From Eledone cirrhosa (lineage: Eukaryota): a DNA stretch of 64,000 bases. The notes under the pieces are model-generated. The model saw only the letters and a program-made list of their open reading frames with translations, was not told where the DNA came from and made no database searches. The stretch is from the NCBI GenBank assembly GCA_964016885.1, contig OZ024747.1:43276001-43340000 (forward strand), read 5' to 3'. This document shows, piece by piece, positions 3,347 to 24,125 of the stretch (its first letter is position 1; each line of letters starts with the position of its first letter). The translations under genes were made by a program, and so were the position numbers.

Positions 3347-4300
3347 TTATTTTAAATTATAATTGTTCAACAAGTGATCTAAAGCATCTTTAAAGTCCTG
3401 AACAGTAGCATCCGCTTTGCAGCTGACTTTCTCCAGATAAACCCTTAGATTTCGCACGTAAGTATCCACATCTAGTTTCTGATAATTCCTTTTCAGTTTT
3501 AAAACGTCGCTTGTTTTTGGTATCGATAGCGAAGTGTCCCTTGCATATCTAATTTCTAAATACAACCTTTCTATTTTATCTGTTTCCGAAGCTGTATCGC
3601 TCTCCATATATGTATCTATCTTCTCCTTTTTAGTGAAAGGACCACCTACAGATTTTAGATAATCAAGGTCCTTGTTTCGTCGCTTGTCGGTGGCGATATT
3701 GGCATCTTCCTTGGTTGCGAGGCCTTCGCGTGTCAACTCCTCCTGTCTTACAGTCCATGCTTTCATAATTTCAGGTATTTGGCCGCCTTTTCTAACCAAC
3801 TTCCTGTATTTGACGAAAGACCCCGATTCATTTTCGATCAGGTCTTTAGCCTTCATCTTTACTTGAGATGAAGAAGCGGCAGCCAATTGTTTCGCGCCTC
3901 GGCGAGTCAATTTGTAATTAATAAAGCCCACGCCTCTTTCTGAATCGAGGTTGTGAATAGGCGCTTTTTCAAGTTTGGCAGTGTCTATCTTTGATAAGGC
4001 GTATGGAGAATCGCGAGCTTCTCCAAATCCGAATATGTCGCCCTTTTGCTTCTGGAAGCCATCACCCAACTTTGGTAAGAGTACCTTTATGACTTTGAGT
4101 ACATCATCTCTCAACTCGCAGGTCGCCGCATTTATCGCATCGCACATTTCGTCATCATATCGGATCTGTCTGAAACGTTCTTCTGATACGAAACTCAAAG
4201 CTGGTTGGTCGGTAGATAATAATTTGCTGGGATCAATATGTATCAAATCGTCGTATATCTTATTGAATGTTATCGCCAGTTTGGGATAGCCCGTCGCTTG
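3347..4300 (-). pseudogene. 5'-truncated C-terminal part of a probable DDE transposase (superfamily unassigned)
   Basis: Stop-free, protein-like frame. It extends upstream of the TTG at 4246 (QATGYPKLAITFNKIYDDLIH) to the foot of the palindrome at 4302. Motif APIHNLDSERGVG resembles the catalytic-Glu region of DDE transposases. No ATG start. Family assignment is from recall only. Confidence 0.6.
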
Positions 4301-4780: not shown

Positions 4781-5497
<717 letters not shown>

Positions 5498-5499
<2 letters not shown>

Positions 5500-5582
5500 T
5501 TGCTCTACAGTTCTTATATATTTGATATATATTTATCCTTATCGAGCCCTCTTTGGATTTTAGTCTTCAAATTTATTATTAT

Positions 5583-5586
<4 letters not shown>
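5498..5586 (+). mobile_element. Extreme 3' tip of PLE family C terminal region
   Basis: Near-identical to the reverse complement of 11351-11443 and flanked by (TA)n. Confidence 0.75.
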
Positions 5587-5624
<38 letters not shown>

Positions 5625-8046: not shown

Positions 8047-8390
8047 TTTCTATGGTTGGGTACTCTTCTTAATGCCAACTATCTTACAGGGTGTATTGAG
8101 TGTGTTTATATTTTCATGGCACCACCACTATCACTTTACTGGCTGTACTGAGTGAATTTTTCTGTGGCACTGACACTAACACTAACACTTTACAGGATGT
8201 ACTGAGTATGTTTTATTCATGGAACCACCACTATCATTTTACTGGCTGTACTGAGTGAATTTTTCTGTGGCACTGACAGTAACACTAACACTTTACAAGA
8301 TGTACTGAGTATGTTTTATTCATGGCACCATCACTATCACTTTATGAATTGTACTGGGTGAAAGTTTTCCTGACACCAGAGCTAACACAG
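8047..8390 (-). repeat. SINE-tail-derived tandem repeat, about 103-bp period made of two about 50-bp subunits, about 3 periods
   Basis: CCAYCACTATCA and GTACTGAGT motifs recur. The unit resembles the reverse complement of 9884-9960 of the SINE. Confidence 0.65.
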
Positions 8391-9155
8391 GGTATACTGT
8401 AGAGAGGTTGTCACATGCTTGTCTAGATGGAATAGTCTTCTCAAGCTCTATATTGTCTCTGTATGATCACCTAACTGTAGCTTCCAGTCTCTCACAACAT
8501 ACATGTTTTGTACATGTACAGTATATGTAAAAAAAGGTGGGGTATGGGTAGTAGATGGAGAGATTGTGAGACACAGAAAGCAAGGAGTGGGAGGTGAAAT
8601 GAACCATTCACCAATATTTGGTAAGCTGTCAGTGATTCTAGTAAAAGTAATCTATTATTATATCTCCATCCAATTACCTTTATTCTCACAACAATGCTCA
8701 TTGCAAATGATTCATCATTATCACATGACCACTCAAAATCACAAGAAGCAATGACTGTAAATGTTTGTAAAATATTTATTGTTCAACAGAAATATTCAAT
8801 AATGAAAGTATTTTAATTAAAAAAAAATATATTAATATAATAAGCAAGAAGAGAGGAAATAGATAAAAAGGGGGCAAGTGAAAATATCAAATAATGAAAA
8901 TGGGAAAGGAGGGGAAGAATTAACACTGGTGATGATGTGGTATATCACAGTTTTGTCCTATGGGTTAGATAGTGAAATCATTGCCAAGGACGGTAAATTA
9001 GTTTCCAACTTCTAGTATTCACTTGAGAATATTTTTACAACTAAAACCTTGCCAGAACTAGTGAGGATACATTTACATGTCTGTTTGACATAATGGACTA
9101 TCTGGTCATATATCAGGCATTATCAACATCATCATCATTTTTATGCCCAATTTTA

Positions 9156-9231
9156 CAGCTGGATGCCCTTTATGATGCTAACCCATAAAAAGGGACTAAA
9201 ATGGGTTAGCATCATAAAGGGCATCCAGCTG
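9156..9231. repeat. Perfect 31-bp inverted repeat, 14-nt spacer
   Basis: CAGCTGGATGCCCTTTATGATGCTAACCCAT (9156-9186) and its reverse complement (9201-9231). Confidence 0.95.
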
Positions 9232-9675
9232 AAGATCCCGTTAAGGGTGAAAGCAGCGATTCTTTACTTAAGATCCCGTTAAGGATGAAAGCAGAGATTC
9301 TTTGCTTAAGATTCCGTTAAGGGTGAAAGCAGCGATTCTTTGCTTAAGATCCCGTTAAGGGTGAAAGCAGCGATTCTTTGCTTAAGATCCCGTTAAGGGT
9401 GAAAGCAGCGATTCTTTGCTTAAGATCCCGTTAAGGGTGAAAGCAGCGATTCTTTGCTTAAGATCCCGTTAAGGGTGAAAGCAGCGATTCTTTGCTTAAG
9501 ATCCCGTTAAGGATGAAAGCAGAGATTCTTTGCTTAAGATCCCGTTAAGGATGAAAGCAGAGATACTTTGCTTAAGATCTCGTTAAGGGTGAAAGCAGCG
9601 ATTCTTTGCTTAAGATCCCATTAAGTGTGAAAGCAGCGATTCTTTGCTTAAACTTTAATCTGTTATTTTAATAAA
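9232..9675 (+). repeat. 11 x 38-bp minisatellite derived from PLE family C terminus, ending in the unique PLE 3' sequence
   Basis: Unit AAGATCCCGTTAAGGGTGAAAGCAGCGATTCTTTGCTT (starts at 9232, 9270 ... 9612), then AAACTTTAATCTGTTATTTTAATAAAT(TA)n as at 13860-13885. Confidence 0.92.
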
Positions 9676-9690
9676 TATATATATATATAA

Positions 9691-10038
9691 TGGAGACACA
9701 TGGCTTACTGGTTAGAGCATTGGCCTTGCAATCGAAAGGTTGTGAGTTCAATTCTAAGACCGGGTGATGTGTTGTTTCCTTGAGCAAGACACTTTATTTC
9801 ACATTGCTCCAGTTTACTCAGCTGTAGAAATGAGATGATAGGGACTGAGGTCCCTATCATTCCACTGCAAAGTGGTCGTGGAGGTGCCACGGCAAAAAAA
9901 AGCACCCAGCACTCACTGTAAATGAGGTTGGTGTTAGGAAGGGCATCCAGCTATAGAAATCAAGCCAGAATCAGTTCCCGTCCCACCCTTGCAAGCAGGG
10001 AAAAAGTGGACGTAAAATGAAATTATGATGATGATGAT
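9691..10038 (+). mobile_element. tRNA-derived SINE family D with CORE-like domain and RTE-derived 3' tail
   Basis: A box TGGCTTACTGG, B box GAGTTCAATTC, CCTTGAGCAAGACACTT domain, 11-bp hairpin at 9835-9860, 3' end matching the RTE end at 10260-10301, (GAT)n tail. Confidence 0.85.
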
Positions 10039-10192
10039 ATACATATATATATTACTCCAGTAAACTGTTGAGTGCTCTATATCAGTTATAAACCTTTAAG
10101 TTTGTTGGAATCCCAACAAATTAAATAAAACTTCTGCATATATATATATATAAATATATATATGTAAGGTATATATATATATATATATATGT

Positions 10193-10230
<38 letters not shown>

Positions 10231-10246
10231 AGGTGTATATATATAT

Positions 10247-10600
10247 ATCATCATCACATCATTTTACGTCCGCTTTTCCCTGCTTGCAAGGGTGGGACGG
10301 GTCTCATTCAGCACAGCATCTCTCCACTTGTCACGGTCCTTCGTCATCTCCACTGTGAGCTTCAGCGATCTGAGGTCTGTTCTCACCACCTCCGCCCATG
10401 TTTTTCATGGTCTACCTCTACCATGTCTTCATTCAACTGGCATTTGCTGGCACTTCTTCACCCATTGGTCATCCTCCATGCACATCACATGTCCATACCA
10501 CCTCAGTCTCCTCTCTCAAACACTACATTCTATCCCTCTCAGACACAGTTTCTTTCTCAACACATCCATGCTGGGTCTTTCACGCACATTAACATTGCAA
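10247..10600 (-). mobile_element. RTE-clade LINE 3' fragment
   Basis: Minus-strand translation ERRLRWYGHVM...HGRGRP*KTWAEVV..DRDKWR, typical of the RTE C-terminus. In-frame stops and a (GAT)n tail. Confidence 0.88.
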
Positions 10601-10957
10601 TATATATATAGATATATAGCTATACAAGATATTGTCTTTGGTTTCTCTAGTTCAGAGTTAAAGTAACCTATATCGATGAAACATGTAAATGCTACAAATA
10701 AATCGTACTGTATTGCTTATCTGTGTAAACATTTTTATTTAGCTATCTATCTATATATATGTATATATATATACAAATATAATTTCAGCGAGATTCGTAT
10801 TTCGGCAGGGTCAAAAACAAGCGAAACGTAATATCCGAGTTATGCTGGCAAGCGCTCCATGGACCAAAAAGAGACCAGAGCAATAAACATAGGTTATAAA
10901 GGCCAAACAAAAAGAGATGGCGGTTAAGAAGCCATCAACCACCATATATGTATATAT

Positions 10958-11072
10958 CAGGGGCGAAGCGTCCGTGCATGCGTTATAGAATCTTGAGTTG
11001 ATCAATTGCGTCGGTTGAAGCAAGCAGAATTGTGGCTGCTTGTATAGACACAAAAAAAGATAAAACACACAC

Positions 11073-11116
<44 letters not shown>

Positions 11117-11318
11117 TTTGACTGCTTACTAATTCGTAGACACATAAAAATATAACACACACACACACTAGATAACACTACATGCGGCTTTGACCGGGAT
11201 TGTCATTTAGAGGGAATTGGAGTTGGGGGGAGAGGGGCGGGGTAAGGCTGCACAGCCCCACTTTCCGCCATGGCGATTGGACTGCATGCCCTGCTTTCCA
11301 GGTTACCCTTCGCCACTG
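10958..11318. mobile_element. hAT-like MITE
   Basis: TIRs CAGGGGCGAAG / CTTCGCCACTG (1 mismatch in 11), inserted in (TA)n, so the TSD length is ambiguous. Confidence 0.65.
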
Positions 11319-11350
11319 ATATATATATATATATATATATACATATATAT

Positions 11351-12110
11351 ATAGTAATAATAATAAATTTGAAGACTAAAATCCAAAGAGGGCTCGGTAA
11401 GGATAAATATATATCAAATATATAAGAACCGTAGAGCAAAGATTTATTAAAATAACATTAAAGTTTAAGCAAAGAATCGCTACTTTCACCCTTAACGGCA
11501 TCTTCTGAAACTAAAAAAGTCAATCTGTGAACGCAGAAGTATTTCAAAAAGCGTTGCAACCGAAGGAAGACAAGAAGACAATACTTTGGTTCGTGGAAAC
11601 GTTCCCTGGCAAAGAACAGAAAAAAACGAAGATAATACGTTATTAATTGGAGAGATGAAAACAATTACACGCAAAGACAAAACAACGTTTATAGTATAAA
11701 TGAAGTCATAGACTAATATTATGTTAGGTGGTTCGTGGAGACGTTCTGTGGCAATGAACGGAAAAAACGAAGATAATGTGGAGCGGTGAGAACAATTACA
11801 CGCAATGAGAAAACCACGTAAATGGTATAACTGAAGTCGTAGACGAAAATTCTATTTAGGAAACCGAATGATTCTCGACTTCAGAGTTAAGAAATGTAAA
11901 TAAAATACAGAGGTAATTGAAATAAATATATACATACATGTATCCATATACGTACATACACAAGCATACGTGAAAACACTCGCCATGGGTATGCAAATAC
12001 AAGCACATACACAAAAAAACACGCACACACATACAGAACACACGCAACCCCTGTACCCACACACATACGAGCGTATACACCAAATACACATAAAAATATA
12101 TATATATGTG
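11351..12110 (-). mobile_element. Inverted terminal region (pLTR/3' UTR) of PLE family C
   Basis: Segments 11443-11613 and about 12030-12105 are reverse complements of 13710-13885 and 13630-13708. Confidence 0.8.
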
Positions 12111-12649
12111 TGTGTGGGTGTATACATATAATTAAATAAACGTATATAAATATACACACATAAATACGTATATAACGCGCGCACACACATACCTACATGT
12201 AAATACACATATGTTCGCAGACGTACGTCAACCAAAACACAAAGTACACATATACACACACCCTACATACGTACGAACCCGCATACTCACACAGTCGCAA
12301 AACTCGAGTATACACATAACCAAATGCACATGTACCAGTTTATATAATATATACGCCATAACATCTACAAGCAAATGTACGTATGAGAAAGTATACGTAC
12401 CTTCACAAAACATACAGGTAATATATACTTACCTATACAAATAAATAATGGTATAAACATAACATATACTTAGCTACCACATCAAGACGTAAAATATCCA
12501 CGTATAGTTCGTACTATCCGTTAGGGTATAATGTGGGGCTGTAATACAGGAAAGTTTTGTGCAATTTATGTTTACAAGCCAAAATTGCCTCAGATTTTTT
12601 GTTTAAGATGTGGTCTTTGGCGTAGAGTATTTCCAGGGCCTCAGTGGCG

Positions 12650-13600
12650 CAGAGGTCACCCTCAATTTGTCAAATGGCTTGCACTACCCATATAGAAAGC
12701 CGAATGATACGCTTAATTACATAAGTAAGCATTCTAACCATCCTGCCAGCATAACCAAGAACCTGGTAAGAAACGTTTCTTTGAGGCTTTCCCGTCTATC
12801 TACAAACGAGTATATTTTCAACGACCATTCCACATATTACAATGAAGCTCTTGCTCGGAGTGGATTTGTCGATAAGGTAGCATATACTGAGTACGAGAAT
12901 AAACCTAGGAAAAATAGATCCCGATGAATTATATGGTATAACCCACCATATAATATGGAGGTGGCCACACCATTAGCTAAGATCTTTCTCTCCCTTATTA
13001 TGAATCATTTCCCCCCACCACATAAATATAGTAAAATTTTTAATAGAAATACCATTAAAATTTCTTACTCTTCGACTCCTAACCTTGCACATAACATCAC
13101 AGCTTCAAATTTAGCTAAACTACCTAGCCGTAGGAACACGTGCAACCCTGTAGTTAGTACTAACTGTAATTGAGGAATCGGGTTGACTGCCCCCTATCAG
13201 GGAAATGCCTCTCTAGTAACATTGTCTACAAATGTAAGGTTGAAACACCCACGTCCCGTAGGGCCTACATAGGGTTAACCGCCAATAGATTCAAGCAGCG
13301 TCTTTACATGCATACTCATTCTTTTCTTAACCCTTTAAGAAGGAATATGACGTCACTTTCAGCTTATATCTGGAGTCTAAAAGACACAACCACACCCAAT
13401 ATAAGTTACACTGGGAGATCCTAGCTAAGGCTAGATCGTATAACGGAAATAAAAGACCATGTGACCTCTGCGCCGCTGAGGTCCTGGAAATACTCTACGC
13501 CAAAGACCACATCTTAAACAAAAAATCTGAGACAATTTCGGCTTGTAAACATAAATTGCACAGAACTTTCCTGTATTACAGACCCACATTATACCCTAAT
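12650..13600 (+). pseudogene. Penelope-like element ORF remnant: RT thumb/C-terminus plus C-terminal GIY-YIG endonuclease
   Basis: PYRKPND..YI..HSNHP, IIWYNPPY, KIFNRNTIKISYS, CN(C)R..CPLSGKCL..IVYKC, AYIGLT..FKQRL..H, CDLC..E, LNKKSE..CKH. One in-frame TGA (12925) and two frameshifts (about 13172 and 13410). Confidence 0.9.
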
Positions 13601-13885
13601 GGTCACAAACACATATATATATATTTTTTTAATATATATTTTTATGTGTATTTGGTGTATACGCTCGTATGTGTGCGGGTACAGGCGTTGCGTGGGTTCT
13701 ATATGTGCTTTGCCAGGGAACGTTTCCACGAACCAAAGTATCGTCTTCTTGTCTTCCTTCGGTTGCAACGTTTTTTTAAATATTTACTTCTGCGTTCACA
13801 GATTGACTTTTTTAGTTTCAGAAGATCCCGTTAAGGGTGAAGGCAGCGATTCTTTGCTTAAACTTTAATCTGTTATTTTAATAAA
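13601..13885 (+). mobile_element. PLE family C 3' UTR/pLTR with hammerhead-like fold at 13814-13864
   Basis: AGTTT CAGAAGA TCCC-GTTAA-GGGT GAAG GCA..TGC TT AAACT, followed by AATAAA and microsatellite. Confidence 0.75.
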
Positions 13886-13887
13886 AT

Positions 13888-13920
<33 letters not shown>

Positions 13921-14611
13921 AAATATATGGAGAATAGGATTGGCTGTGTAGTTGCTAGTTAAGTTAGGCTTAAAATTGGAATGAGAATAAGAAGAAAGCA
14001 AGAATGTGTGTACACACACACACACACACACACACACAGATATATATATTATAGTAGTAATCGGTTTCCATTTGTTGAATTTGAAATCAAAACTATGTCA
14101 ACGTGCAGTGGATTTTGACTCAACAAATGAATTGCTTATCATAGAGTTTCTGAAGTGAACAACTGTAGGTACAATGAAGTTAATTCCTGGAGTATTTATA
14201 TAGATATTAATAAATCACATGAATACACCAATTTTGCAGTTGAAGGATTAAGATTTATTACATAAATGACAAGTGTTTCATTGATATGTAGGTGAGCATA
14301 TCTAGAATCGCCGCTAATCTCATGTTTTTTTTCAGAGAACTTGAATTCAAATATTTTGTGTCAGCCCCATGACGTATCAGCTTATCAAAGTTTAACAAAG
14401 TTTTCGTTCATACCGGGTAGTGTTTGTATATATTGAGAGAAGGCATGTCACTAAAGAGAAATCTAAGTTGTATAAATTTAAACCCATATCAAAATATATT
14501 GAGAGACAAGAGATGTGAATATATAGTAAAGTAGCCTGGCAATGTCAGTTGTCACAATTCTATCTCTAGCATTGGTAGTATCAACAATATTAATATTATT
14601 ATTTTTCCATC

Positions 14612-23730: not shown

Positions 23731-24125
23731 TTGTTTAATGTAACATAGTGGTGTTTATTATAGGGGGCTGTATTTAGTGTAAGGTGGTGGTGTTTAATAT
23801 AAGGTGGTGGTGTTTAGTGTAAGGTGGTAGTGTTTAGTGTAAGATATTAGTGTTTAATGTAAGGTGGTGGTATTTATTGTAGGGGGCTGTATTTAATGTA
23901 AGGTGGTGGTGTTTAGTGTAAGATGGTGGTGTTTAGTGTAAGGTGGTGGTGTTTAATGTATGGTTGTGGTGTTTATTGTAGAGGGTAGTGTTTAGTGTAA
24001 GATATTAGTGTTTAATGTAAGGTGGTGGTATTTATTGTAAATGGTGGTGTTTAATGTAAGGTGGTGGTGTTTAGTGTAAGATGGTGGTCTGTAATGCCAG
24101 ATATTGGTGTTTAATGTAAGGTGTT
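23731..24125. repeat. 20-bp G/T-rich minisatellite, about 19 copies
   Basis: Unit approximately GTGTTTARTGTAAGGTGGTG. A more decayed version of similar period lies at about 23095-23340. Confidence 0.85.

Follow-up and report, generated by a model that had tools for sequence, protein, structure and literature searches.

A minisatellite of eleven 38-bp units begins at position 9232 of the window, the 64,000-nucleotide stretch of Eledone cirrhosa DNA analysed here. The reading that we favour, with moderate confidence, places this array at the 5' junction of a very short Penelope-like element (PLE) copy, whose first 38 bases were duplicated once at end joining, followed by expansion to 11 units at the DNA level. 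Each unit ends at the predicted cleavage site of a hammerhead-like motif, and the repeat was probably not set by this site. The non-random feature is the unit start, which falls where ordinary copies of the family end at their 5' side.

We used element coordinates in which position 0 is the last T of GCTT, corresponding to U17 of the predicted hammerhead and to window position 13859 in the plus-strand pLTR. The start of a unit is denoted x and its end y. The array and its flanks are composed as follows.

9156–9186 (plus strand): host flank, the end of a host repeat copy with related copies elsewhere; template of the inverted duplication
9201–9231 (minus strand): perfect 31-bp inverted copy of 9156–9186 after a 14-nt spacer, seen in the sequence and in contig depth
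9232–9649 (plus strand): eleven 38-bp units, PLE positions −37 to 0, with AA microhomology at each junction
9650–9675 (plus strand): true PLE 3' end in its tail-less form, +1 to +26, passing into TA by +29
9676–9689 (no strand): (TA)7, the target type found at the 3' end of family copies

Alignment and TRF (period 38, 11.2 copies, score 757) confirmed the array reported by the initial annotation; its units are each exactly 38 bp and start at 9232, 9270 and so on to 9612. The unit is indeed present once in each PLE terminus of the window, with one mismatch to the modal unit at 13822–13859 (plus strand) and two at 11467–11504 (minus strand). Copying of the array from these neighbouring pLTRs was rejected because both differ from the modal unit. 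Unit 11 runs into AAACTTTAATCTGTTATTTTAATAAA (to 9675) and then into (TA)7, so that the last unit continues into true PLE 3' sequence, as had been noted. The unit end can be placed at the last T of GCTT or at either of the two A's that follow, the 2-nt ambiguity already noted. The unit had also been equated with stem II, GAAA and stem III of the motif; it does contain these parts, and in addition the final 4 nt of the core, with none of stem I.

Seven bases vary across the 11 units, and two linked changes are common to units 2, 8 and 9. This double variant has only 5 other matches in the genome, versus 21,859 for the modal type, and hence it arose once within the array and was then copied. The later slippage that had been read from these variants is therefore upheld. 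A second RNA template as the source of the shared variants was rejected, the double variant being nearly confined to the array.

The PLE copy carrying the array has its 5' end at −38 and no PLE sequence upstream of it. The last base of the inverted host copy at 9201–9231 is a G shared with PLE position −38, and we infer that this 31-bp copy is a snap-back at the 5' junction. This flank was absent from the first description of the array. Three public runs of a single sample have contigs identical to it, and one short-read contig spans its hairpin at 9157–9230 with single-copy depth (8–14). The copy number of 11 rests on the assembly, as none of the contigs from these runs spans the array. The array is without sign of function or of mobility.

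Two further minisatellites in the window, at 8084–8388 (period about 103, 3 copies) and 23732–24123 (period 20, 20 copies), bear no relation to the PLE unit. From 34091 to 64000, the rest of the window is taken up by about 587 copies of a 51-bp satellite (94% matches), whose long open frames are repeat-derived. A 317-aa open frame at 3347–4300 (minus strand) has no Pfam match and may be a piece of another transposon.

The element from which the unit derives is represented in the window by a head-to-head pair, a separate insertion of the same family.

11351–12659 (minus strand): minus arm of the pair, with a tail of about 90 nt and the module once (11467–11504)
12660–13885 (plus strand): plus arm of the pair, pLTR, with the module once (13822–13859)
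12661–13558 (plus strand): broken RT-thumb, Zn-linker and GIY-YIG coding pieces in the plus arm, 73–94% to the family ORF by tblastn

Fifteen copies were chosen for long open frames, full elements among them. The full element L219 has a 709-aa ORF in which YRDD and IVY..YIG motifs were recognised by eye, with RT followed by a GIY-YIG endonuclease, and a Cys-rich linker, CNCRNRADCPLSGKC, that resembles CX2-5CxxC and lies upstream of the GIY-YIG motif. The ORF has its ATG 159 nt after position 0, and direct pLTRs flank it on both sides in L219, L220, L222 and L223. Its Atlas neighbours (0.96–0.99) carry HTH_animal, GIY-YIG and RVT_1 domains. Pfam gave no significant match for the ORF pieces of the window or for the full 709-aa ORF, and a PDB search with the family ORF gave no match. 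Judged from its sequence, the source of the unit is an EN+ PLE of the Neptune/Nematis type by the definitions in PMC8557442, which include a Cys linker between RT and EN.

The family is abundant, with 41,618 exact matches to a 3' terminal 21-mer and 21,859 to a 25-mer within the unit; an upstream 20-mer has 1,371 exact genome matches, a count lowered by polymorphism. Elsewhere in the window, a lone piece of the tail region of this family (5492–5588, 92% to L219) lies beside (TA)n tracts, and the PLE 3' UTR at 11587–11856 holds an older internal duplication of about 130–140 bp.

The motif at whose predicted cleavage site the unit ends has the following form.

13814–13864 (plus strand): hammerhead-like motif (−45 to +5) with stem I AGUUU/AAACU, core CAGAAGA, 3-bp stem II, GAAA, 5-bp stem III and CUU

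A type I hammerhead topology can be drawn here, with three stems (5-bp stem I, 3-bp stem II and 5-bp stem III) around the core, GAA and NUH in place and the cut after GCUU, so that the site had been correctly placed in the initial annotation. The core mostly departs from the canonical CUGANGA: 91 of 99 copies have CAGAAGA and one has CTGAAGA. The base pair closing stem II (10.1–11.1) is U.U in 97 of the 99 copies instead of G-C; the G10.1-C11.1 pair is described as highly conserved in hammerheads (PMC4209133). The predicted share of the hammerhead fold was 0.0007, and free folding of the pLTR end gave a z near 0 and did not yield the hammerhead. Rfam at gathering score gave no match in the whole window. 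By E-value, 32 sub-cut-off matches were obtained on 9100–14000, with no hammerhead among them, and the two highest-ranking ones correspond to the flank hairpin, scored as a generic miRNA stem. Judged by these features, self-cleavage of the predicted pLTR hammerhead is doubtful; PLE ribozymes have been described as weak or protein-assisted (PMC4209133 and PMC11167929). As stem I and three core bases are missing from the array unit, it holds no complete ribozyme and cannot fold the hammerhead, and the array is no retrozyme.

The unit boundary had been attributed to this cleavage site. We searched the 3.0 Gb genome for the array junction in its exact register, with at most 1 mismatch, and obtained 9 matches, all 9 at this locus. 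Two gap patterns with exact anchors (unit lengths 24–54 and 20–50) yielded 33 other loci (21 and 12) that reiterate the same PLE segment, other-repeat loci having been dropped by eye (15 from the first pattern and 2 from the second). Across all 33, each of them parsed, the units are 12 to 54 bp long and end anywhere from −24 to +29. The unit end is compatible with position 0 at 3 of the 33 loci (L047, L083 and L088; L092 is a doubtful fourth), against an expectation of 1.3 (uniform) to 2.1 (microhomology-weighted) from a model in which x was fixed and y was drawn from what the gap patterns could detect (P 0.14–0.34, or 0.04–0.15 with L092 counted). Position +3 is compatible with 4 loci, as many as or more than position 0. 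Among the 34 loci a register is shared in only two pairs (L049/L076 and L079/L081), neither at the cut site. The same 38-bp unit and register were thus found at no independent locus, the unit ends of the other arrays are scattered, and a boundary set by the cleavage site finds no support.

Six arrays besides this one have at least 4 clean units (the irregular L095 was excluded), and 2 of the 6 fit position 0, compared with 0.34–0.46 expected (P 0.04–0.07, post hoc). One of these, L083 (G000:C27:5646200-5649200), has 21 units of 46 bp that are readable as exactly −45 to 0; a 3-nt microhomology explains its register equally well, its first unit starts at −47, and its right side has neither the PLE 3' end nor (TA)n. 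The further PLE-junction minisatellites, L075, L072, L091, L089 and L047, have 20, 6, 6, 4 and 4 units with periods of 35, 51, 33, 47 and 35, respectively. A three-unit variant block is repeated in L075, and a variant is common to four units in L072.

The setting of the 34 loci points to the insertion junction. An inverted arm immediately precedes the reiteration at 23 of them, and host DNA or (TA)n at 8; these 31 mark the 5' junction of a short copy, and the other 3 lie within long copies (22, 10 and 2 by script, before L073 and L094 were moved by eye). Copies extending past −85 make up 3 of the 34 reiterated loci compared to 37 of 66 ordinary arms (Fisher P 3e-6). The first piece is partial at 14 loci, has the same start as the other units at 8 (the array locus included), is longer at 9 and internal at 3. 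Because of the partial first pieces, slippage of one copy would be insufficient without a further deletion. Only two pieces are present at 21 of the 34 loci, and fillers or inverted snippets (negative overlap) occur at 11 of 33 junctions.

We compared these loci with 69 ordinary arms anchored at their 3' end in the first 20 Mb of one contig; paired arms are included, so that the arms are not independent. Twenty of their 5' ends fall in the 16 nt from −48 to −33 and only 1 in the 37 nt from −85 to −49. The remaining ends lie at −155 to −86 (18), beyond this (19), at −32 to −3 (10) and at the cut site (1). A second sample of 46 arms agrees with this distribution. The 3' ends are at +28/29 in 47 arms, without tail, and at +111 to +117 in 22 arms, with tail. 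Among unit starts of the reiterated loci at −31 or further upstream, 23 of 25 lie in −47 to −33; this clustering follows from that of the ordinary 5' ends and is not independent evidence. Five of the 69 arms (L143, L157, L158, L161 and L183) end at −91 behind a common GTGTAAC after TA/TG repeats, and probably form a subfamily of short non-autonomous elements or mark a second fixed end.

Arms ending at −45 carry an extra base: 5 of 6 are preceded by G where the element has T, as against 1 of 12 arms ending at −42 to −36. The genome has 2,507 matches with a base other than T before −45. Of the first 100, tallied by hand, 80 are junctions (52 G, 19 A and 9 C) and 20 are intact point variants, none of which has G. 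The G excess has a binomial P of 6e-6 or less, even with 40% G expected, and the G is also present on pure (TA)n flanks. A variant master copy as its origin was rejected, since 0 of the 20 intact variants have G. A 3' splice site at the −45 hot spot was likewise rejected, as AG is kept in the copies and the upstream flanks differ.

These junctions suggest a capped RNA start at −45 (window 13814), with the RT running off the capped 5' end. The TTAGTT at this site resembles the initiator consensus. An internal Inr/DPE promoter has been described in the 5' region of Drosophila Penelope (PMC2377424), and an extra cap-derived G at full-length L1 insertion junctions (PMC11702581). Against this reading, an untemplated base added to an uncapped end would leave the same trace, and the 5' pLTRs of full-length copies extend past −156, so that a start at −45 is not directly visible in them. 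Our search of the openly available PLE literature, by listings and abstracts, found neither cap-G run-off ends nor junction-seeded minisatellites.

At least 10 of the first 100 non-T matches (e.g. L147, L197, L049 and L079) have the head-to-head junction GGGATCTTCTG joined to AGTTTC. A cap-derived base together with a 2-bp fold-back with a 3-nt loop may give this junction, the commonest among these matches, and is a candidate origin of the inverted arms of PLEs.

In the junction model that we favour, reverse transcription would start inside the 5' UTR at two internal sites and run off the capped RNA end at −45. The resulting cDNAs would be about 75 or 160 nt long and often trimmed by a few bases, the copy at the array presumably to −38. 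The host end would fold back and copy 31 bp of its own sequence, and would then pair with the cDNA end at −38 and be extended to GCTT(AA), positions 0 to +2, before release. Re-pairing by AA at −37/−36 and synthesis through would follow, as in a templated insertion of the polymerase theta type; PLE RT acting on DNA would give the same product. The two-unit seed would later have expanded, as the linked variants testify, probably by ordinary slippage or unequal exchange. Several of these steps have precedents: internal RT start at two sites with extension of both target strands for a PLE in anole (PMC11167929), snap-back at R2 5' junctions (PMC11371274) and iterative templated insertions in microhomology-mediated joining (PMC12426944). 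It had been proposed that the tandem DNA was generated at integration. This stands for the seed duplication, which most likely arose then in view of the under-representation of long copies, and not for the rest, which is probably later expansion at the DNA level.

The array resembles, on the evidence of its junctions, a polymerase theta-type templated insertion, with this enzyme as a candidate. Its locus has AA and G microhomologies and a 31-bp inverted flank copy, and the same pattern is seen at many of the 33 other loci. Polymerase theta insertions and the snap-backs of R2 and L1, as described in PMC12426944, PMC11371274 and PMC11702581, are alike in a microhomology of 1–3 nt, copies of nearby DNA in inverted orientation, filler sequence, several rounds of abortive synthesis and an extra G at full-length ends. 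The array differs from such insertions in that its piece is longer and was later amplified to a minisatellite; its 38 bp exceeds the usual templated insertion (<25 bp, PMC12426944), which counts against the junction model. So do the 2 of 6 long arrays that fit the cleavage site, with L083 readable as −45 to 0. Moreover, second-strand realignment on cDNA and first-strand realignment on RNA would leave the same sequence.

The latter is the strongest of the alternatives, and we consider it unlikely. In such a first-strand stutter, the cDNA end near the RNA 5' end would re-pair at a downstream microhomology on the same or a second RNA, with later expansion; there would be a fixed 5' template boundary, as in telomerase, and no fixed 3' boundary, and the stretch would be recopied once or a few times. 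The concentration of unit starts in the run-off zone, the 8 loci at which the first unit starts where the other units do, and the G before −45 at an internal junction of L078, L079 and L081 are consistent with it. However, the clustering of starts follows from any junction model, and the first piece usually has another start (14 partial, 9 longer). At 14 loci the first piece is contained in the inverted arm, from which a snap-back could have copied it, the snap-back of host DNA at the array locus is DNA-templated, and most of the loci have two pieces only.

Replication slippage after insertion is less probable still. A clean short copy starting at −38 would have slipped between AA dinucleotides 38 bp apart and then expanded. 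The reiterated share of about 0.1% of copies (22 loci per 21,859 exact 25-mers) is similar to that of the upstream pLTR control (1 per 1,371), where the control anchors gave about 4 PLE-derived loci by eye in 74 rows (unnormalised) and 1 in 3 rows, too few for a firm rate comparison. Three loci are inside long copies, part of the junction itself is reiterated in L071 and L077, and the later expansion of the array is of the slippage kind anyway. Slippage leaves unexplained why the unit start falls within 1 nt of the 5' end of the copy at the array locus, as well as the shortage of long copies and the 14 partial first pieces.

The mechanism put forward in the initial annotation appears improbable. 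There, hammerhead cleavage gives a short RNA ending at U17, and repeated jumping or realignment of the RT, or rolling on a tiny circle, lays down the whole array. The array unit, L047, L083 and L088 can all end at 0, the 21-unit L083 is readable as the whole predicted 5' fragment, long arrays are in weak excess, and Cervera and de la Pena proposed circles templating more-than-unit copies (PMC4209133). However, the 3 of 33 loci at position 0 are close to expectation, and the position-0 cases have four different starts, each explained by 1–3 nt of microhomology. The core is degenerate, with the low fold share and absence of Rfam match given above, and 1 of 69 ordinary arms starts at the cut site. 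For the anole PLE the main substrate was uncleaved RNA, and none of the reads ended at the cut site (PMC11167929). The linked variants imply that the units stem from more than one round, and in a rolling circle made by hammerhead cleavage the joint would be 0/+1 instead of 0/−37. Cleavage-bounded copying, whether of the telomerase kind or rolling, thus finds no support in the lack of a common register across the 34 loci and in a unit that cannot fold the hammerhead, and keeps a small probability for long arrays.

An equally improbable variant has the PLE transcript starting capped on the first hammerhead base; the freed 46-nt fragment (−45 to 0) would stay on the RT and be copied in the manner of telomerase, with the array, L047 and L083 as products. 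An assembly or read artefact is very improbable: no public contig spans the array, but its units carry distinct and linked variants, short-read contigs match the flank and hairpin, and 33 comparable loci exist.

Telomerase has a fixed 5' template boundary, and its product 3' end realigns on a short repeat. The PLE reiterations differ in having no fixed 3' boundary across loci and mostly one round, with the unit number set later in DNA. Copying of the telomerase kind should show the same two template boundaries at independent loci; across the 34 loci the unit ends range from −24 to +29. PLE RTs are sister to telomerase RT (PMC8557442). Non-LTR retrozymes and hammerhead satellites (bioRxiv 10.64898/2026.07.22.740005 and PMC4209133) are alike in being a tandem pLTR repeat around a type I hammerhead motif. 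As outlined in bioRxiv 10.64898/2026.07.22.740005, a non-LTR retrozyme has a complete hammerhead in at least two consecutive units, while the array unit spans only −37 to 0; a dispersed family of the same unit is also expected, and 9 of 9 junction matches are at one locus.

The family itself is like the Neptune-clade EN+ PLEs described in PMC8557442 and PMC3846280 in its ORF of RT, Cys linker and GIY-YIG, its pLTRs, optional tail and (TA)n targets, and in head-to-head inverted 5'-truncated arms and microhomology at 5' joins. It differs in its tail (about 90 nt versus 30–40) and in an ORF start 159 nt after the predicted cut site. The sharp 5'-end hot spot, the untemplated G and the small junction reiterations are particular to the present family relative to the available descriptions in these two sources. 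As such, PLE insertions of complex tandem and inverted form are already known, as are hammerhead repeats derived from pLTRs and templated insertions at junctions (PMC8557442, PMC3846280, PMC6765202 and bioRxiv 10.64898/2026.07.22.740005).

With more than 41,000 copies in the family, the array belongs to a few dozen accidents of joining, and the family-wide pattern of 5' ends matters more. If −45 is the capped RNA start, PLE RT would often start near the transcript 5' end and make a short run-off cDNA like retroviral strong-stop DNA. The origin of the tandem and inverted structures of PLEs has been named as open (PMC8557442 and PMC3846280). Such run-off, if true, would account for the many tiny copies and offer a cause for the head-to-head inverted arms, and it would show one route by which retroelements seed minisatellites.
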